A stretch of DNA of 37,935 nt from an uncultured Dehalococcoidales bacterium (GCA_964594245.1 CAZQML010000220.1:1-37935); one strand, 5' to 3'. Shown: positions 6,290-34,474, counted from the first letter of the stretch. Notes: generated by a model from the sequence alone, not told the origin. Made by a program: numbers and translations.

Positions 6290-6363
6290 TGGGCCATTGT
6301 GGACTCGAACCACAGACCCCGGTCTTATCAGGACCGTGCTCTAGCCGACTGAGCTAATGGCCC
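6290..6363 (-). tRNA. tRNA-Ile (anticodon GAU)
   Basis: The reverse complement GGGCCATTAGCTCAGTCGGCTAGAGCACGGTCCTGATAAGACCGGGGTCTGTGGTTCGAGTCCACAATGGCCCA folds as a cloverleaf: 7-bp acceptor stem, GCTC/GAGC D stem, CGGTC/GACCG anticodon stem with loop CTGATAA, and a TGTGG-TTCGAGT-CCACA T arm. CCA is not encoded. Confidence 0.9.
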
Positions 6364-6754: not shown

Positions 6755-8326
6755 CTAGAGCGGTATGTTCCCGTGCTTCTTGTCAGGATATGGCTCGCGC
6801 TTCGTCTCAAGGAGATCGAATGCCCGGGCCAGCTTGAATCTTGTATCCTTCGGATCAATCACGTCATCGACCGACCCTCGTTCGGCGGCACGGTAGGGAT
6901 TCGAGAACTGTTCCTTGTACTCCTGGATTCTCTGTGCCCTGAGTGCGTCGGGGTCGTCGGCGCTCTTGATTTCTCGAGCGAAGACTATCTCGGCGGCGCC
7001 GCTCGCCCCCATGACGGCAATCTCAGCCGAAGGATATGCCAGGACCATATCCGCACCCAGGTACTTTGAGCACATGCCGACATAGGCTCCGCCGTACGCC
7101 TTTCTGAGTATCAAGGTGACCTTTGGAACAGTCGCCTCGGAGTACACATACAGCAGCTTCGCGCCGTGGCGGATGATTCCTCCGTGCTCCTGGGCAGTCC
7201 CGGGCATGTAGCCCGGCACGTCGACCAGCGTCAGCAGGGGGATGTTGAAGCAATCGCAGAACCTGATGAACCGCGAGGCCTTGTCGGATGCATTGATGTC
7301 GAGGACTCCGGCCATGAACTTCGCCTGGTTCGCGATGATGCCGATGCTGCGTCCGCCGATGCGAGCGAATCCCACCACCATGTTTGGGGCGTACAGACGG
7401 TGCACCTCGAAGAAATGTCCGTCGTCCACGATTTTGGCGATGACATCCTTGACGTCGTAGGGCTTGTTCGCGTCGGCAGGAATCACATCACGCAACGAGA
7501 CGTCCTCCCTGTCCACGGGGTCCTCTGTGAGGACTGGAAGAGCCTCCTCCCTGTAGTTCTGAGGCATGTATGAGAGCAGTTCCTGTGCGGTGGCAATCGC
7601 CGCCTCATCGTCGCCGGCCAGAAAATGGGCAACGCCACTCCTCTGGTTGTGTACAAGACCGCCACCGAGTTGTTCGTGGGTCACTTCTTCCGAGAGGACG
7701 TCCTTCACGACCGCCGGGCCTGTGATGTACATCGTGCTCGACTTGCGCGTCATGATGATGAAGTCGGTGATGGCAGGCGAGTACACGGCGCCCCCGGCGG
7801 TGGGGCCAAGGACAATCGATATCTGTGGGATGACTCCCGACGAGCGAGAGTTGCGGAAGAATATCCGGCCGTAGCCGTCCAGCGAGTCGATGCCTTCTTG
7901 GATACGGGCGCCACCTGAGTCAAGCATGGCGATGCAAGGAATGCCCGCCTGGAGCGCAAGGTCCTGCATCCTCGCTATCTTGAGGGCGTGTATCTCACCC
8001 AGCGAACCGCCAAGCACTGTGAAGTCCTGAGAGTACACGGCAACCTTGCGTCCGGCGATGCGCCCCACTCCGGTGACGACTCCGTCTGCAGGCAGCTCCA
8101 TCTTGTCCAGGCCGTAGTAGACGGAGCGCGTCTTCATGAACTCGTCGTACTCGACGAACGAGCCCTTGTCCAGAAGCACGTCTATCCGTTCACGAGCTGT
8201 CAGTTTGCCTTTGGCATGCTGCGCCTCAATCCTCTGCTCGCCGCCGAGCTTACGAACCGCCGCGCGCTTCGCCTCGAGTTCGAGTTGTCTCTTCTGTCCC
8301 TCGTTGATCTCTTCCATCTCATTCAC
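6755..8326 (-). CDS. mmdA: Acyl-CoA carboxyltransferase subunit (methylmalonyl-CoA decarboxylase alpha / PccB family)
   Basis: 523 aa, the length and sequence style of the carboxyl_trans family (..GKLTARERIDVLLDKGSF.E.., ..AMLDSGGARIQEG.., ..GGAYVGM..). Its neighbours are the Na+-pump beta subunit and the biotin carrier. Confidence 0.85.
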   Translation of the reverse strand: MNEMEEINEGQKRQLELEAKRAAVRKLGGEQRIEAQHAKGKLTARERIDVLLDKGSFVEYDEFMKTRSVYYGLDKMELPADGVVTGVGRIAGRKVAVYSQDFTVLGGSLGEIHALKIARMQDLALQAGIPCIAMLDSGGARIQEGIDSLDGYGRIFFRNSRSSGVIPQISIVLGPTAGGAVYSPAITDFIIMTRKSSTMYITGPAVVKDVLSEEVTHEQLGGGLVHNQRSGVAHFLAGDDEAAIATAQELLSYMPQNYREEALPVLTEDPVDREDVSLRDVIPADANKPYDVKDVIAKIVDDGHFFEVHRLYAPNMVVGFARIGGRSIGIIANQAKFMAGVLDINASDKASRFIRFCDCFNIPLLTLVDVPGYMPGTAQEHGGIIRHGAKLLYVYSEATVPKVTLILRKAYGGAYVGMCSKYLGADMVLAYPSAEIAVMGASGAAEIVFAREIKSADDPDALRAQRIQEYKEQFSNPYRAAERGSVDDVIDPKDTRFKLARAFDLLETKREPYPDKKHGNIPL

Positions 8327-27398: not shown

Positions 27399-28136
27399 GT
27401 GGTGGATACCCTCTTAACGTTCAACAACCTTCTCTGGCCTGCCTTTGTGCTGGCTGACCTCGGCCTCGCAGTGCTCTTGTTCAGGTTCTTTGGCAAAGAT
27501 GGGTTGTACGTCCTCGTTGCCGTGTCTGTGATTGTGGCCAACATACAGGTCACCAAAACGATCGTGCTCTTCGGTCTCACCGCAACGCTCGGCAATGCCC
27601 TGTACGGGTGCACGTTCTTCGCCACCGATGTCCTCAGCGAGGTGTACGGCAAACGAGAGGCTCGACGGAGTGTCTGGCTCGGCTTCGTTGCCATGGCACT
27701 GGTTGTTGTCTGGATGCAGTTCGGCCTTAGATTCGTGCCGGGACCCGAGGACCTGGCGCATGGCTCATTGACAACGGTCTTTGGACTGATGCCACGTGTG
27801 GCGGCCGGAAGCCTCGTTGCGTATCTAGTGTCGCAGCACCACGATATCCTGGCTTTCCATTTCTGGAAGACCAGGACACGGGGTCGTCACCTCTGGCTGC
27901 GCAATTGTGCCTCTACGATGGTGTCTCAAGCCATCGACTCCGTGCTGTTCTGCTTCATCGCGCTGTGGGGTCTCTATGACACAGGCACGTGGTTGGAGAT
28001 ACTCGCAACAACGTACATACTGAAGTGGGTGGTTGCATTGCTGGATACCCCGTTCATCTACCTGGCGGTCCGGCTCAACCCGCCCGGGCGGGCCGAGCCG
28101 TCCGGCGATGGCCCGCTTCTGAGGGAGGTAGCATGA
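27399..28136 (+). CDS. yhhQ: Queuosine-precursor transporter (YhhQ/DUF165, VUT family)
   Basis: 245 aa and polytopic. Blocks typical of DUF165: ..TFFATDVLSEVYGKREARR.., ..SLVAYLVSQHHDILAFHFWK.., ..LWLRNCASTMVSQAIDSVLF... Adjacent to tgt. Confidence 0.8.
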   Translation: MVDTLLTFNNLLWPAFVLADLGLAVLLFRFFGKDGLYVLVAVSVIVANIQVTKTIVLFGLTATLGNALYGCTFFATDVLSEVYGKREARRSVWLGFVAMALVVVWMQFGLRFVPGPEDLAHGSLTTVFGLMPRVAAGSLVAYLVSQHHDILAFHFWKTRTRGRHLWLRNCASTMVSQAIDSVLFCFIALWGLYDTGTWLEILATTYILKWVVALLDTPFIYLAVRLNPPGRAEPSGDGPLLREVA

Positions 28137-29701
28137 GAATCTGCACTGTTCAGGAGATGAGAGAGCTTGATAGGCGTGCGGTTGAGGAGTTTGGCCTTTC
28201 CGAGGATATCCTCATGGAGAACGCCGGACAGGCCGTGTACGAGGTTGCGAAGGCGGAATTCGGCACAGACGGAAGGCGCTTCGTTGTGCTGTGTGGCGGG
28301 GGCAACAACGGCGGCGACGGACTCGTCGTTGCACGGAAGCTGCACTCGGTGGCTGCCGAAGTCAAGGTCTATCTGCTGTCCGATGAGGACGCGCTTCATG
28401 GGGCGGCACGCAGGAATCTGGATGCCGCGATGCGCGCGGGCATTCCTCTGCAGCGACTTCGCATGGTTGAGGACCTCTACCTGGGCAGGCCGCACGATGT
28501 CCTCATTGATGCCATCTTTGGCACGGGACTCTCGCGAAGCCCGGAGGGCCTGAACAGAGAAGTGATTGAACGTGTCAATGAGTTCAATCAGCCGGTTCTG
28601 AGCGTGGATATTCCGTCCGGAGTAAATGGAGACACGGGTGCGGTGGTGGACATCGCAGTTCGGGCAACCTGCACGGTTAGCTTCGGATTGCCCAAGAGAG
28701 GCAACATGTTGCCACCGGGACGGGGGCTGTCCGGGAAGCTGTACGTGTCGCACATCTCGTTCCCGCCGTCACTCTACCGCGCCGAGAGCCAGGTTGTCAC
28801 GAATCGTCTCAGCGTCTTGTCTCCCAGGCTGGCTGAGTGTCACAAGGGTGACTTCGGCGATGTCCTGTTTGTGGCTGGTTCACGCGCCTACCTGGGTGCT
28901 CCGCTCTTCGCCTCGATGTCATTCCTGAAAGCTGGCGGGGGCTACGCACGACTCGCTACGCCTGCGTCAATCGCCCCCTTGCTGGCGGTCCGGGCGAGCG
29001 AGGTGGTCATGGTTCCCCTTCAAGAAACGGCCGACGGAAGTATCGCTCTCTCGAACCTCGATGGGCTGTGTGCCCTCGCAGACAGCGTCGACATGGTCGT
29101 TGTCGGCCCGGGCCTGTCGCTCAACGGGGAGACACAGGAGCTTGTCAGAGGGCTTGTCTCCCAAGTCACGAAGCCCATACTTGTTGATGGTGATGGTCTC
29201 ACTGCCATAGCATCTGATGGAGAGATGGTTCGGCGGCGCGAAGCCCCGATGGTGCTCACTCCCCACGCCGGTGAGATGTCGCGACTGCTCGGTGTTTCCG
29301 TAGCGGAGGTGGCTCACGACAGAATCGCGGCGGTGCAGGAAGCCTCCGGCAGACTCAACTCGGTGGTCCTGCTGAAGGGCTCGAGCTCTCTTGTCGCTGA
29401 GCCGGGTGGCCCTGTGTCTCTCAATCTCAGTGGCAATCCGGGCATGGCAACTGCCGGGAGCGGGGATGTCCTCGCCGGGACGATTGCCGCTCTCTATGGT
29501 CTGGGACTTGGCCTCCGGGAGGCGGCAGAGGTCGGTGCATTCGTACATGGATTGGCGGGTGACCTCGCGGCCGAGGAGAAGGGGCAGGATGGCATTGTCG
29601 CTGGTGACATCATGGAGTTCCTGCCCCGTGCGATGCGATACTACCGGGAGAGATTTCGTGATCTCGAACGAAACCTATACGGGGGGCCGGTCGTTGTATA
29701 G
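28133..29701 (+). CDS. nnr: Bifunctional NAD(P)H-hydrate repair enzyme (epimerase + ADP-dependent dehydratase)
   Basis: ATG 28133 follows GAGGGAGG and overlaps the yhhQ stop (ATGA). The YjeF-N motif is VLCGGGNNGGDG and the C-terminal carbohydrate-kinase motif is GSGDVLAG. 522 aa. Confidence 0.9.
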   Translation: MRICTVQEMRELDRRAVEEFGLSEDILMENAGQAVYEVAKAEFGTDGRRFVVLCGGGNNGGDGLVVARKLHSVAAEVKVYLLSDEDALHGAARRNLDAAMRAGIPLQRLRMVEDLYLGRPHDVLIDAIFGTGLSRSPEGLNREVIERVNEFNQPVLSVDIPSGVNGDTGAVVDIAVRATCTVSFGLPKRGNMLPPGRGLSGKLYVSHISFPPSLYRAESQVVTNRLSVLSPRLAECHKGDFGDVLFVAGSRAYLGAPLFASMSFLKAGGGYARLATPASIAPLLAVRASEVVMVPLQETADGSIALSNLDGLCALADSVDMVVVGPGLSLNGETQELVRGLVSQVTKPILVDGDGLTAIASDGEMVRRREAPMVLTPHAGEMSRLLGVSVAEVAHDRIAAVQEASGRLNSVVLLKGSSSLVAEPGGPVSLNLSGNPGMATAGSGDVLAGTIAALYGLGLGLREAAEVGAFVHGLAGDLAAEEKGQDGIVAGDIMEFLPRAMRYYRERFRDLERNLYGGPVVV

Positions 29702-30003
29702 CAGAGAGCCATTGTTGGTGGGTGTGGGGGTAGAATAGGGGCGCCAGGGCTCCCTGTTGTCGCCAGAGCGTGGATTCGTGGTTGGTCAGATGCGTTCATG
29801 TGGCTGTGGACCAAGGCTTGCCTGGCCCGTGAGCGAAGCAAGCAGTACGGTGCGGGCTGGACAGTGTCTTGGGATTCCGTCTGGTTTCGGGGTGCAACAA
29901 GGACCTTCGCTTCTGTGTCTCGACACAGCCATGTGAGGTGGCTCTCAGAGGCGGACACTGTGATGGAGCCAGAGGGCCTGTCCTGGTGCTTGCCGCACGT
30001 GCG

Positions 30004-30032
30004 TTGACATTCGTGAAGGAGGGAACTAGAAT
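30004..30032 (+). promoter_or_regulatory. Near-consensus sigma70 promoter of the tubulin-like gene
   Basis: TTGACA (30004-30009), exact 17-nt spacer, TAGAAT (30027-30032). The ATG at 30039 lies 6 nt after the -10 element. Confidence 0.55.
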
Positions 30033-30038
30033 AGCGCC

Positions 30039-31211
30039 ATGAAGCTGCTGGTAATAGGACTTGGACAATGTGGCGGGCGGATCGCCGATAGATTCGCTCG
30101 CTTGAACAAGAGAGGGCATGCCCTCCGCGGGATGGACACTCTCGCCGGAGTGTTCGCAGTCAACACGGATGTGACGGACCTCAGCGGACTGCGTACGATC
30201 AAACCTGACTACAAGCATCGCATACTCATCGGTGCGCAACGTACGAACGGCCATGGCGTGGGGAAGATCAGCGAACTGGGTGCCGAGATAGCGAACGAAG
30301 ACGTCGACAAGATAGTCGATGCGATTCGCACGGCCGAAGGATTCTACGAGACTGACGCCTTCCTGCTGTGCGCCGGAGCTGCGGGCGGTACAGGATCTGG
30401 CGCCATAGGGGTGCTGACCAAGCACCTGAAGGAACGGTATATCGGGAAGCCTGTCTATGACGTGGTGGTCCTGCCGTTCCGCCAGGAGGAGACCACTGAG
30501 ACCAGAACCATCTATAACACGGCAACGTGCTTGAAGTCGACGTACCTGGTCGCTGATGCCGTGTTCCTGATTGACAATCAGCGCTATGTGAAGAAAGACG
30601 CCCCCGCCGAGAACAACCTGAACACTATCAATGCCAGAGTGGCGGAGCCGTTCTACAACATGCTGTGCGCGGGCGAGGAGACCAAGAGCCGCTTCGTTGG
30701 CTCCAAGACACTCGATGCTGGAGACATCATCCAGACTCTAACCGGGTGGACAGTTATCGGAGGTGGTATGTCGAGGCTCGAGCGACGACTGCCGTTCTGC
30801 GGCCCGAGGCGTGACTTTCGTGACAAGATGATTGAAACCAGCCGGGCCTCGCACGCGATGGATCAAGCCATAAGCGAGCTGTCAATGACGATTGACCCGA
30901 GCGATGCGGGAAGGGCTCTGTATCTCCTTACGGCCCCTGCCAAAGAGATGAGCATGGACATTCTCAAGCAGCTCGGAGACAACCTCAAGAGCCTTGCGCC
31001 CAACGCCCTCATCCGGAGTGGTGACTACCCGCGGGATAGTCGGCAGGTTGACGTGACTCTTGTCATGTCGGAGATTGGCAGCGTTCGAAAGGTAACGGAC
31101 TACTTCACCAAGGCGATCGACCTCATCTCGGTGATGAAGGCGAAACGCGGGCTCGGCTATCAGACGAGAAAGCTCGAGGAGTCCTTCGATGAGATTCCCG
31201 TGCTGCTATGA
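30039..31211 (+). CDS. Tubulin/FtsZ-superfamily GTPase, CetZ/tubulin-like (not canonical FtsZ)
   Basis: 390 aa beginning MKLLVIGLGQCGGRIA (T1 loop). Other motifs are AVNTDVTDL, GHGVGKISELGAE, the tubulin signature AGGTGSG (aa 115-121), VFLIDNQ and the T7-like LDAGDIIQTL. The C-terminal tail is ..SFDEIPVLL. Confidence 0.8.
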   Translation: MKLLVIGLGQCGGRIADRFARLNKRGHALRGMDTLAGVFAVNTDVTDLSGLRTIKPDYKHRILIGAQRTNGHGVGKISELGAEIANEDVDKIVDAIRTAEGFYETDAFLLCAGAAGGTGSGAIGVLTKHLKERYIGKPVYDVVVLPFRQEETTETRTIYNTATCLKSTYLVADAVFLIDNQRYVKKDAPAENNLNTINARVAEPFYNMLCAGEETKSRFVGSKTLDAGDIIQTLTGWTVIGGGMSRLERRLPFCGPRRDFRDKMIETSRASHAMDQAISELSMTIDPSDAGRALYLLTAPAKEMSMDILKQLGDNLKSLAPNALIRSGDYPRDSRQVDVTLVMSEIGSVRKVTDYFTKAIDLISVMKAKRGLGYQTRKLEESFDEIPVLL

Positions 31212-31246
31212 TTGAACTCGTCTCGTTGCTGTGACGAATGACGCAT

Positions 31247-31279
31247 GAAGTCCCCTGGCTGTACCAGCCAGGGGACTTC
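31247..31279. terminator. Bidirectional hairpin between convergent genes
   Basis: Perfect 15-bp stem GAAGTCCCCTGGCTG / CAGCCAGGGGACTTC with a 3-nt loop. It sits between the stop of the tubulin-like gene (31211) and the stop of the 192-aa repeat gene (31308). There is no strong U-tract on either side. Confidence 0.5.
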
Positions 31280-31307
31280 TGTCTACTTGACCTCTTCGAG
31301 TTTCTGT

Positions 31308-31886
31308 CTACCTGCGGGCCTTGGTGAACACTGTCCATGTGCGCGCCATAGCCTCTCCGTGTACCTGGCGAGCCTTCTTCTCGGCTTCGTCTCTCTCTCT
31401 CAGCGATTGTGAGACGACGTCGTCATACGCCTTCTTGGCTTGGGCAACGTTGTCGTCATATGCTTTGCGAATCTGCGCAGTGCTCGCCTCGAACGCATGC
31501 TGAGCCTGAGCCAGGTCGTCTTCCATCACCTTCTTTGCCTGTGCGAGGGAAGTCTCGTACTGCCCTCGTGCCCGGCCTGTGGCGTCCATAGAGCCCCGCC
31601 GGGCCTTGTCGAGGGCGTCTGAGTACGCCTTCTCGGCTTTCTGCTCCTGGTCTTTGTAGGCGTTCTCCAGCTGGTGCTCCGCCTGGACGTACGCCATATA
31701 GGCCGCTACGGCACGTTGTTGGGTTTCGTCCAGGGCATCAACCATCGCCGAATCTTCCGCCGCTGGAGGCTTCTTCACGTCTTCAGCCTGCGCCTTGGTT
31801 TCTGCCGCTGTTGGAGGCCTCTTCTCGGTGTCAGTCTGCGCCCTGCTTTCCGGCGCTTTCTCGCGCACTTCCTCTACGTTGGCCAT
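31308..31886 (-). CDS. Hendecad-repeat (11-residue period) Ala/Lys/Asp/Gln-rich helical protein, 192 aa
   Basis: ATG 31886 is preceded by AAGGAGGG. About 12 consecutive 11-mers have a conserved aromatic/hydrophobic residue at positions 66, 77, 88, 110, 121, 132, 143, 154, 176 and 187 (for example KKAYDDNVAQA and KKAYDDVVSQS). Confidence 0.7.
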   Translation of the reverse strand: MANVEEVREKAPESRAQTDTEKRPPTAAETKAQAEDVKKPPAAEDSAMVDALDETQQRAVAAYMAYVQAEHQLENAYKDQEQKAEKAYSDALDKARRGSMDATGRARGQYETSLAQAKKVMEDDLAQAQHAFEASTAQIRKAYDDNVAQAKKAYDDVVSQSLRERDEAEKKARQVHGEAMARTWTVFTKARR

Positions 31887-31985
31887 CTATGCCCTCCTTT
31901 GGCAATGTGTTTCGTCAATGTCTCTTGTGGGAGAGTGTATCATGTGCCGCCTCTCTGAGGCCCCCTCAGTGAAGACATCTCGCGG

Positions 31986-33557
31986 CTATCGTTCGCCTTC
32001 CTCGCTGTCATCGGACCTTTCGAACGGCTTGTCCTTCTCTGATGCGTACATTCTGGAGAGGAACTCCAGCCTCGCTCGCATGTCTCGCTTTGCTTCGTGC
32101 GGCGGCGGCTTCAGTCTCGACTCGTCCGGCTCGATTCGGCTGAGGGCCTCCTCGAAGAGCTTTGAGGAGGGGAGTTCGGATGGCTCTTCGACCCCCTGGC
32201 TGGCCTTCTCCGCACCCGCGACGGCTTCTTCAAAGACGCGAGCGGATGCGTGAGCGGCCTTACGTGCGGTCCTGGTGGTCTCCTCAGCCTTCTTGATGGC
32301 CTCCTCGAGAACCTTTGCCGATGCAACTACGGTGTCGCGCGCCGCGGTGATTGATGCCTCGGTGGCTTCTCTCACCACGCGTCTCGACTCCGCTGCTGCC
32401 CGCATAGCTTCGGTGCCGATTTCCTCGGAGCGACGCACTGCCTCCGCTGCCAGCCCCCGCGCTTCCTCCTCCGCCTCGGCGGCGAGCTTCCCGATCTCTT
32501 CAGCTCGGGCTGCCGATGCCTCGGATGCCTTCAGGGCGTCTTCCGCCAGCCTCATGGCTGTCGACGTAACCTCTTCGCTGCGTCTAACGGCCTCGCGAGA
32601 CGAACGCTCCGCTTGCTCGGCCTTCCCCATGGCCTCCTGCGAAGCACGAGTCGCGGACTCGACTGCTTCCCTGCTTGCCCTTACCGTTTCTTCAATGCGG
32701 GCGACCGCCTCGTGAGACGACTTGATTTGCTGGCTGGCCTCACGCTGGCTTAGCTTCCCTGCCTCCTCCGCTCGCCGCAGGGCAGTTTCAAACGCACGGC
32801 TGGACTGCGCGGACGACGCATTCGAGGCAGCAATTGCCTCTTCTGCCCGAGCAAGCGCCTCTTCAAATGCCCCGGAAGACAGAGCGGCTGAATCGGAGGC
32901 CGACTGGAAGACTCTCTCCGCCCTGGCGACAGCCTTCGCGGAGGCCTTCTCAGCGTCTCGTGAGGCCTTCTCGGACGAGCGGGCGAGTCGCTCAAGTGTA
33001 ATCTGGGCCTCACGAGAGGCTTTGATGGCCTCCTCTGAAGCCCGTGTAGCCTTCTGGCCCTCTTCTTCAGCGCGCGCCACCGCTTGCTGGGCCGCGCGCC
33101 GGGCTTCCTCCGCCTTCTCCTGCGCAACCTGCGAAGCCTTCTCGACCCTGCTCAGCAGCTTCTGGGAGGAAGAGACTGACTCCACCACGGAATCCATCGT
33201 CTGATTCGCAATCACCTCAAGCTGCGCAACCGCCTCTTCAAATGAGCGAGCGCTCTCCTCGGCTGCCTCAGTGGACGACCGAACGGCCTGCTCGGCTGCA
33301 GCGATGGTGTCTTGCGCCCTCGAGATGGTCCCATCCACCGACTGGCTGACCTCGGACGCCTTCCTCACAGCGTCCTCGGCCATCTTTCGGGCCTCTTCCG
33401 CCGTGGCAAGCGCCTCGCGGCCGATGTTCTCGATTCTGGTGACGGCCTGTTCTGAGGCTTTGCGAGAATGCTCTCCAGCCTGGCGTGCAGCCAGGTTCAT
33501 CTGCTCGGCTCTTGCTACCGCCTCTTCGAAGGAAGGTGACTCTCTGTCTCTGTCCAT
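31986..33557 (-). CDS. Large Ala/Glu/Ser/Arg-rich repeat protein (about 25-residue period, predicted coiled coil), 523 aa
   Basis: A continuous 523-codon ORF with GGAAGG Shine-Dalgarno and its own promoter. The motif [FLS]-E-E-A-[VLIM]-x-[RK]-A-E-E recurs (FEEAVARAE, FEEALARAEE, FETALRRAEE, LEEAIKKAEE, FEEAVAGAE, FEEALSRIE). Confidence 0.75.
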   Translation of the reverse strand: MDRDRESPSFEEAVARAEQMNLAARQAGEHSRKASEQAVTRIENIGREALATAEEARKMAEDAVRKASEVSQSVDGTISRAQDTIAAAEQAVRSSTEAAEESARSFEEAVAQLEVIANQTMDSVVESVSSSQKLLSRVEKASQVAQEKAEEARRAAQQAVARAEEEGQKATRASEEAIKASREAQITLERLARSSEKASRDAEKASAKAVARAERVFQSASDSAALSSGAFEEALARAEEAIAASNASSAQSSRAFETALRRAEEAGKLSQREASQQIKSSHEAVARIEETVRASREAVESATRASQEAMGKAEQAERSSREAVRRSEEVTSTAMRLAEDALKASEASAARAEEIGKLAAEAEEEARGLAAEAVRRSEEIGTEAMRAAAESRRVVREATEASITAARDTVVASAKVLEEAIKKAEETTRTARKAAHASARVFEEAVAGAEKASQGVEEPSELPSSKLFEEALSRIEPDESRLKPPPHEAKRDMRARLEFLSRMYASEKDKPFERSDDSEEGER

Positions 33558-33621
33558 CTACGGGTTGCCTTCCAGCAGGCGTTCAGCCATCACGGAGATG
33601 CGGCTGAACGTGCGCAACGGT

Positions 33622-33650
33622 ATTGTAGTCACACCACTTGTTATTATCAA
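33622..33650 (-). promoter_or_regulatory. Sigma70 promoter of the repeat-protein operon
   Basis: On the minus strand: TTGATA (33650-33645), 17-nt spacer, TACAAT (33627-33622). The ~58-nt leader contains an 8-bp hairpin (33581-33609). Confidence 0.5.
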
Positions 33651-34474
33651 CGAAAAGCAGGGATTCTTCGATTATGCAGGGCGGGCAGTCGCTTGCGGAC
33701 ATCGGCCAGTTCACGCAGGTCGAGCTGTGCCGAGATGATATGTTCTCCCTCCTGCGGCGCGCGGGCGAGAACTCGACCCCATGGATCGACAATCATGCTA
33801 TTCCCGTACGTCGCTATCCCCCCTGCCCCCATCCCCGCCTGTCCCGGCGCGACTATGAAGCACTGGTTCTCGATAGCGCGCGCCCGAACAAGTATCTCCC
33901 AGTGCGCCTCTCCTGTCGGAGCTGTGAATGAGGACGGGATGAATACGAGCTCTGCTCCAATGTCGGCCAGGCGCCGATATAGCTCCGGGAAACGGACGTC
34001 GTAGCAGATGGTCAGACCTACCTTCATCCCCGAAGCTTCGGCACACACGACATCCGTACCTGCGGTGTAGTGGCTCGATTCGGCCACCGACCTGTCTCCG
34101 ATGGTCATGTCGAAGAGGTGAATCTTGCGGTAGGCTGCCGCGATTCTTCCCCGGGGGTCGATCAAGACCGACGTGTTGTACGGCATGGAAGCGTCCGCGT
34201 CTTGCTCGTGGACGCTTCCAGCCAGGATCCACACTTCGCGTTGGGCGGCAAGACCCATCAGCGGCTCAAGGGCGGTGCCCGGAAGGGGCTCCGCAATGCT
34301 GCTGAGGATGGACGTATCGCCTCTGTAGTCGAAGGTCTCGGGCAGAGCGACCAGTGTGGCTCCATTCTCTGTGGCCTTTTTCACCAGGTCAACGGCACGC
34401 TGGATGTTCTGCTGCTTGTCGGGACCGCTCGCCATCTGGGCGATTGCCACCGTCACTCGTGTGCTGGCTGTCAC
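33647..34474 (-). CDS. Carbon-nitrogen hydrolase (nitrilase superfamily; omega-amidase/Nit-like)
   Basis: Glu-Lys-Cys triad context: LVALPETFDY, YRKIHLFD, GLTICYDVRFPE. The preferred start is GTG 34474 (AAGGAAG Shine-Dalgarno 9 nt upstream, product VTASTRVTVAIAQM..). The ORF is open to GTG 34528. Confidence 0.85.
   Translation of the reverse strand: MTASTRVTVAIAQMASGPDKQQNIQRAVDLVKKATENGATLVALPETFDYRGDTSILSSIAEPLPGTALEPLMGLAAQREVWILAGSVHEQDADASMPYNTSVLIDPRGRIAAAYRKIHLFDMTIGDRSVAESSHYTAGTDVVCAEASGMKVGLTICYDVRFPELYRRLADIGAELVFIPSSFTAPTGEAHWEILVRARAIENQCFIVAPGQAGMGAGGIATYGNSMIVDPWGRVLARAPQEGEHIISAQLDLRELADVRKRLPALHNRRIPAFR

Follow-up and report, generated by a model that had tools for sequence, protein, structure and literature searches.

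A conserved three-gene module of a CetZ-like GTPase and two helical-repeat proteins in Dehalococcoidia

Introduction

The closest described relatives of the system considered here, a three-gene module (genes A, B and C) in 37,935 nt of DNA from an uncultured Dehalococcoidales bacterium (GCA_964594245.1 CAZQML010000220.1:1-37935; this whole stretch is called the window, and the module occupies its positions 30004-33650), are the CetZ proteins of archaea. Duggin and colleagues are said to have found in 2015 that archaeal CetZ1 acts in shape control and not in division. Haloarchaea with CetZ are wall-less and S-layered, and the characterised Dehalococcoidia also lack peptidoglycan and have an S-layer, so that the two host groups share this trait. 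Gene A resembles archaeal CetZ1 and CetZ2 in its two-domain architecture, in a CetZ_C domain that scores above threshold and in having CetZ1 as its best full-length match. It differs from them in its bacterial host, its FtsZ-like DIPxLL tail, its basic isoelectric point (pI) and its two dedicated partner genes, B and C. To our knowledge, no equivalent conserved partners have been described for archaeal CetZ, whose binding partners are essentially unknown.

Three other groups of systems are comparable in part. FtsZ with ZapA, ZapB, EzrA, SepF and FtsA likewise combines a filament of this superfamily with helical accessories, and its C-terminal peptide is similar; however, A falls below the FtsZ equivalog model and lacks FtsZ_C, neither B nor C is related in sequence to the FtsZ accessories, and the module in the window lies outside the division and cell wall (dcw) cluster. 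In BtubA/B-BtubC and TubZ-TubR-TubY, as here, accessory genes peculiar to the lineage are co-inherited as a unit with a tubulin-like GTPase. In those systems, however, the GTPase belongs to other subfamilies and the partners are tetratricopeptide-repeat or DNA-binding proteins rather than helical repeats, and the module described here is convergent rather than a single operon, and chromosomal and class-wide rather than sporadic or plasmid-borne. Lastly, crescentin, FilP, Scy, tropomyosin and the filamentous microtubule inner proteins of cilia are, like B and C, long, unbroken and periodic alpha-helical rods of non-heptad type, but B and C have no sequence similarity or significant structural similarity to them, and the 25/7 periodicity of C is distinctive.

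CetZ-like sequences of Chloroflexota-Dehalococcoidia have been mentioned in passing, with no partners named, and Dehalococcoidia were placed among the "other CetZ-like proteins", which form sparse paraphyletic groups outside canonical CetZ (Santana-Molina et al. 2023, PMC9871819). The GTPase superfamily of A and the presence of CetZ-like proteins in Dehalococcoidia were already known. In the literature searched we found no description of the B and C families, of their strict co-inheritance with one class of CetZ-like paralogue, or of the split between paralogues.

Results

Conserved linkage of the three genes

Conserved synteny, which a preliminary description of this DNA had set beforehand as the key test of the module, was found in both directions of search. 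The forward sample consisted of 80 genome loci chosen by homology to A, and the reverse sample of 80 metagenome loci chosen by homology to C, 30 of which were too short to show neighbours. Homologues of C were present in 54 of the 80 forward loci and homologues of B in 51, and every one of them was convergent to a CetZ-like gene. In the reverse sample the order C> B> <CetZ-like was present in all the loci with enough downstream DNA (50/50), with no counterexample. The genome and metagenome loci of Dehalococcoidia together yielded 96 modules of the form A> <B <C, of which 92 contain B.

The surroundings of these modules are far less stable. Next to A, at least 32 different gene families border the modules, and next to C at least 27; the flanks seen in the window (nnr and CN-hydrolase) were retained in only 11 of 80 loci. 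That the trio stays linked although its neighbourhood has changed more than 30 times is difficult to account for unless the genes are functionally coupled. The preliminary description had treated convergent orientation as weak linkage evidence; this was not borne out here, as convergence is itself the conserved arrangement. The conserved order argues, with high confidence, that the three genes are a real and functionally coupled module of Dehalococcoidia (Chloroflexota).

Gene A encodes a CetZ-like GTPase

The product of A had been described as tubulin-like, which was right and can now be sharpened to CetZ-like from its matches in Pfam, NCBIfam and PDB. In Pfam it matched Tubulin (PF00091) at 1.1e-32 and CetZ_C (PF21011) at 3.7e-12 over residues 193-360, with 46.5 bits against a gathering threshold of 21.6, while no FtsZ_C domain was found in the Pfam scan. 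It scored 64.1 bits against the NCBIfam FtsZ equivalog TIGR00065, below the cut-off of 295.2. The best PDB match was CetZ1 of Haloferax volcanii (4B46; 9.9e-40, full length), followed by CetZ2 (4B45) and 3ZID. The phmmer scores against PDB entries were 140 bits for CetZ1, 89 for CetZ2, 59 for 3ZID, at most 50 for FtsZ, 39 for gamma-tubulin and 28 for TubZ. More than 6000 homologues of A were found, those named by source being from Dehalococcoidia or Chloroflexota, and among the matches listed PF21011 and PF00091 were both present in 120 of 120. By these matches A is a CetZ-type member of the tubulin superfamily and not FtsZ.

The nucleotide-binding motif GGTGSG (G116-G121) and the T7-loop residues D226 and D229 were invariant in 13 homologues, and in the alignment to 4B46 D229 stood opposite the glutamate in the T7 loop of CetZ1 (...DSSEIIN...). 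Since the nucleotide-binding and T7 residues are intact, GTPase activity coupled to polymerisation would be expected of A. Codons that differ between A and its counterpart at locus L001 comprised 75 synonymous and 12 nonsynonymous changes, and the gene is evidently under strong purifying selection.

The C-terminal peptide of A is ...FDEIPVLL. An ending of the form (D/N)-I-P-[VST]-L-[LI] was found in nearly all of 99 collected CetZ-like sequences, a few of which carry 1-2 extra residues, and it resembles in sequence the C-terminal peptide of FtsZ (D-I/V-P-x-F/L-L). The clear exception is a divergent tandem copy at L045, which is the third CetZ-like gene of that locus and very divergent (6764-7939).

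Genes B and C encode two families of periodic helical proteins

No sequence match below E = 0.01 was found for C in Pfam, NCBIfam or PDB. The protein consists of an N-terminal segment with FEEAVARAEQ, about 18 in-register repeats of 25 residues, a flexible linker, a C-terminal helix with RLEFLSRMY and an acidic tail. Orthologue alignments gave the repeat consensus SQEAIxRAEEISxxAxEAAEEAxxA. Across the family the N-terminal FExAVARAExLS and the C-terminal helix RLxFLxxMY are conserved and the number of repeats varies. The periodicity ascribed to C earlier is real, as the protein is self-similar at offsets of 25, 50, 75, 100 and 125 residues, and its hydrophobicity has a single sharp peak at a period of 3.57, which is 25/7, over 444 residues. 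In 91 of 91 orthologues of C (501-800 aa) the best self-offset was 25 residues.

The AlphaFold 2 models of B and C were built on shallow alignments of 2-3 sequences each. That of C had a predicted local distance difference test (pLDDT) score of 63, with helices at residues 10-121, 126-266, 271-453, 465-475 and 487-508. A Foldseek search of it against PDB returned only generic long-helix matches (E at least 1e-3; template modelling score at most 0.3), with long helical ciliary proteins at the top, and we did not take the matches as signs of homology.

B likewise gave no match below E = 0.01 in Pfam, NCBIfam or PDB. It has an acidic disordered N-terminus, a block of the form LDExxQRAxxAYxAYxEAERQ..AYK, a run of 11-residue repeats and a conserved C-terminus (W184 and K189; W..F.K). 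Here, too, the periodicity proposed in the preliminary description was recovered, as B is self-similar at 11, 22 and 33 residues and its hydrophobicity has a period of 3.66; in 92 orthologues the offset of 11 residues is retained together with a period close to 3.66. The model of B (pLDDT 69) has residues 1-45 disordered and helices at 42-100 and 107-191, and nothing significant was found for it by Foldseek against PDB. The family is small: an exhaustive hidden Markov model search of 1.84 billion representatives gave about 104 clusters at E<=1e-10. One homologue, P0122, carries the Pfam accession PF28068, so a newer Pfam release may already hold a family that covers B, probably a domain of unknown function.

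We rejected homology between B and C (hhalign probability 4%). In both, the periodicities and terminal motifs are still present at about 30% identity. Each is a true protein family rather than simple low-complexity sequence. Searches of Pfam, NCBIfam and PDB (E < 0.01) placed neither in ZapA, ZapB, EzrA, SepF, TubR/Y or BtubC. In a test for membrane-targeting helices, the hydrophobic moments at the C-termini of both proteins lay within each protein's own background.

Two paralogue classes of CetZ-like genes and their charge

Dehalococcoidia carry at least two classes of CetZ-like paralogue, the second of which was found in the context gap-cetZ-dnaX-ybaB-recR, without B or C. In a neighbour-joining tree the CetZ-like proteins linked to B and C, including that of the window, stood apart from the dnaX-linked class. 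At about 10 loci, as in many Dehalococcoidales, the C-B pair lies between two CetZ-like paralogues (gap, A2>, <B, <C, A1>, dnaX; Table 1).

The two classes differ in charge, with a median pI and charge of 8.8 and +5 for the B/C-linked proteins vs 7.3 and +0.5 for the dnaX-linked ones. Across the family the median charge is -19 for C and -4 for B, and the C of the window has a net charge of about -20. This combination of a basic A with acidic B and C suggests that the rods bind the filament electrostatically.

Promoters, leaders and the convergent-stop hairpin

A sigma-70 consensus scan of 29600-33800, with shuffled sequences as control, yielded exactly two promoter-like sites (shuffles 0.5 +/- 0.7), and these are identical to the two promoters claimed in the preliminary description. 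Upstream of A the last 40 nt or so were nearly invariant in 7 relatives and the remaining intergenic region was not conserved. All 28 loci of the clade of the window (28/28) have TTGACA, a spacer of 17-18 nt and TAnAAT ending 6-9 nt (mostly 6-8) before the ATG of A. The mRNA of A is therefore probably leaderless in this clade, the -10 element of the window itself ending 6 nt before the ATG. In the sister clade, A has a short leader after its promoter, together with the ribosome-binding site AAGGTG. AAGGAGG, a string like a perfect Shine-Dalgarno sequence, lies within the spacer of the promoter of A in the window (30010-30027), some 14 nt upstream of the ATG, and is invariant in the closest relatives; farther members of the clade keep only the -35 and -10 hexamers. 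This string could serve transcripts begun further upstream.

On the other side, inspection by eye showed TTGAAA or TTGATA, followed after about 17 nt by TAnAAT, in front of C at most orthologous loci, of which an automatic pattern flagged only three. We regard both promoters as phylogenetically footprinted. The same scan found no promoter-like or terminator-like site in the 99-nt gap between C and B, and the two genes are likely to be co-transcribed. The 9-bp inverted repeat in the leader of C, which has the same arms at L001 and L002, may form a stabilising or regulatory hairpin.

Between the stop codons of A and B, the shared perfect 15-bp hairpin noted earlier is present. It folds with -33.1 kcal/mol (z = -7.5), a stability that none of 200 shuffles reached. 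The terminator scan did not report it because a U-tract is absent. A strong hairpin of different sequence occurs at the same place in 8 of the 9 closest relatives (those whose A is at least 91% identical; L007 not evaluated), while more distant loci often have no hairpin between the convergent stops. Recurrence with differing sequences is consistent with a structural terminator role, and the element is probably a bidirectional terminator without a U-tract.

The locus and its flanking genes

All three open reading frames (ORFs) of the preliminary description were recovered, and so were the flanks it had named, with nnr (YjeF_N and Carb_kinase) upstream and CN_hydrolase and the transporter genes TRAP DctM, DctQ and DctP downstream. 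Coordinates are collected in Table 1.

Table 1. Position of the module genes, their putative control elements and the paralogue loci
Feature	Position	Strand	Description
Promoter of A	30004-30032	+	TTGACA-17-TAGAAT; 11/12 consensus matches
Gene A	30039-31211	+	390 aa; CetZ-like tubulin/FtsZ-superfamily GTPase
Convergent-stop hairpin	31247-31279	.	Perfect 15-bp G+C-rich stem, 3-nt loop
Gene B	31308-31886	-	192 aa; 11-residue helical repeats
Gene C	31986-33557	-	523 aa; 25-residue helical repeats
Inverted repeat in C leader	33580-33610	-	9 bp; CGTTCAGCC / GGCTGAACG, 13-nt loop
Promoter of C-B unit	33650-33622	-	TTGATA-17-TACAAT; 10/12 consensus matches; 64-nt leader
Paralogue loci	L036, L047, L049, L052, L053, L055, L058, L067, L071, L074 (e.g. 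L047:1631-7078); L033, L041, L043, others		

Codon differences from L001 at positions 1/2/3 numbered 35/36/100 in C and 7/5/76 in A, and this excess at the third position vs close relatives confirms the coding frames. Four long ORFs on the plus strand (146-160 aa; rich in S, A and R) lie antisense to C at 31795-33738. We rejected them as genes and consider them by-products of the GCN/GAR-rich codons of C, whose minus-strand frame is favoured because promoter position, terminal motifs and codon-position statistics agree.

The rest of the window is ordinary chromosome, with rpoA, recA, dnaE, ligA, tgt and a cluster of oxaloacetate-decarboxylase type, and its G+C varies little (about 0.58-0.64). 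Metagenome-assembled genomes of Dehalococcoidia hold the closest homologues. A tRNA gene at 6290-6363 on the minus strand was the sole Rfam match within the window. The longest ORF of nnr starts at a GTG at 27989 and shares some 150 nt with the end of the Vut_1 transporter gene (27399-28136); because homologues align only from about residue 41-49, the true start is probably near 28130.

Discussion

Our preferred reading, which we hold to be fairly probable, is that the trio is a dedicated cytoskeleton of a filament and its partners that shapes the cell or its envelope, B and C binding the polymer of A. A with GTP would assemble into protofilaments. The acidic C would be a rod tens of nanometres long which, together with the smaller acidic B, would bind the unusually basic polymer of A, and B and C would jointly bundle or stabilise the filaments, space them or anchor them. 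Docking may involve the C-terminal helix RLxFLxxMY of C and the conserved end motifs of B. The DIPxLL tail of A probably binds adaptors of the FtsZ tail, e.g. FtsA. Our confidence in this specific mechanism is moderate to low.

The role would most likely be in cell shape or envelope organisation rather than in division itself. This role is favoured because CetZ1 is a shape protein in archaea, because characterised Dehalococcoidia are without peptidoglycan, and because of a correlative proteome pattern in Dehalococcoides mccartyi BTF08, which is also indirect evidence of co-expression. In that strain the FtsZ/tubulin GTPase btf_0551 and a hypothetical protein encoded nearby, btf_0548, are abundant in the disc-shaped cells of pure culture, and neither was quantified in barrel-shaped cells of co-culture (PMC8163811).

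Several points weigh against a dedicated A-B-C cytoskeleton. B is absent from 4 of the 96 modules. The models of B and C are of moderate confidence and gave no significant Foldseek matches, and the charge contrast is not phylogenetically independent. The subunit spacing of tubulin and FtsZ protofilaments is about 4.0-4.4 nm, whereas a helix of 25 residues measures about 3.75 nm; with this mismatch a ruler of one repeat per subunit, which we considered, is not supported. A divergent short C-like protein, P0121 (L161:8001-9122; 373 aa), retains AVARAE and RLEFLxRMY and stands alone between genes for a peptidase M20 and a carboxylesterase, with no CetZ-like gene within 8 kb. The hypothetical protein btf_0548, which co-varies with btf_0551 (PMC8163811), could be matched to neither B nor C.

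The best surviving alternative, although unlikely, is that the CetZ-like protein is a second component of an FtsZ-like ring that shares the anchors of FtsZ through DIPxLL, with B and C as regulators or cross-linkers of the Zap/EzrA type. Coiled-coil partners of FtsZ are well known, and one CetZ-like paralogue lies directly after ftsA-ftsZ, at L056:4242-9986, in the order rsmH-ftsA-ftsZ-CetZ-like-nrdR. The bona fide FtsZ there ends in ELDVPSFLRK and the adjoining CetZ-like protein in NIPTLL, so that the DIP[VST]L[LI] endings of CetZ-like proteins do resemble the FtsZ peptide. No mur, ftsW or ftsI genes lie between rsmH and ftsA at this locus, which is thus a collapsed dcw cluster, as would suit a lineage without peptidoglycan. 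However, this ftsZ-linked copy is without B and C, the module of the window stands among unrelated housekeeping genes rather than in a dcw cluster, and neither B nor C matches a Zap, EzrA or SepF family in Pfam or NCBIfam. Archaeal CetZ1, the type to which A is related, reportedly works in shape and not in division. Co-variation of proteins in D. mccartyi does speak for a link to division, as FtsZ and the tubulin-type GTPase fall together in co-culture (PMC8163811).

It is distinctly unlikely that B and C act alone, without touching A, as an intermediate-filament-like scaffold or as amphipathic coat or stress proteins like phasins or late embryogenesis abundant proteins, their adjacency to A then reflecting only shared regulation or the same broad process. 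Repeats of 11 residues, as in B, are typical of lipid-binding amphipathic helices, convergent genes share no transcript, and the stand-alone P0121 is what such independence would allow. The Phasin models (PF09361/PF05597) also bear on this. The C orthologue at L031 (9226-11184) passed the Phasin_2 threshold (4.3e-7; 30.5 bits vs 24.9), and weak matches were given by the orthologue at L047 (3467-5644; 0.0049) and by P0123 (0.013). However, the C of the window gave no match to these models, and the matches elsewhere are probably compositional because C proteins are amphipathic helices rich in A, E and K. Persistent linkage to one clade of CetZ-like paralogue, through the changes of neighbourhood described above, also stands against independent action.

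Segregation of DNA by a tubulin-like motor of the TubZ-TubR-TubY type is highly improbable: TubZ does pair with small partners, of which TubY is a coiled coil, and the paralogous CetZ-like gene adjoins dnaX-ybaB-recR, but A scores 140 bits against CetZ and about 28 against TubZ, no DNA-binding domain was found in B or C in Pfam or NCBIfam, no iterons, tandem DNA repeats or centromere-like repeats were found around the module genes, and the context is that of chromosomal housekeeping genes (rpoA, recA, dnaE, ligA, tgt) rather than a plasmid or phage.

Returning to the dedicated cytoskeleton that we prefer, the finding provides a concrete system of three proteins for reconstitution in vitro, namely a bacterial CetZ-like protein and the two candidate partners that are strictly inherited with it. 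It also adds two families of helical-repeat proteins with unusually sharp periodicities of 25/7 and 11/3. A bolder form of this reading, tentative and in our view doubtful, is that the trio is the principal shape-determining cytoskeleton of Dehalococcoidia, in which a CetZ filament is lined, bundled or measured by C together with the adaptor B, and which has been shared or exchanged between archaea and Chloroflexota. If this were true, B and C would be the first defined partners of any CetZ-type filament, and the module would correspond, in a prokaryote, to tubulin with microtubule-associated proteins or tropomyosin lining the filament. The module also bears on the exchange of tubulin-family cytoskeletons between archaea and bacteria. 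Dehalococcoides, an organism of bioremediation, is disc-shaped and without peptidoglycan, and the module is an obvious candidate for how Dehalococcoidia may hold their shape and divide.

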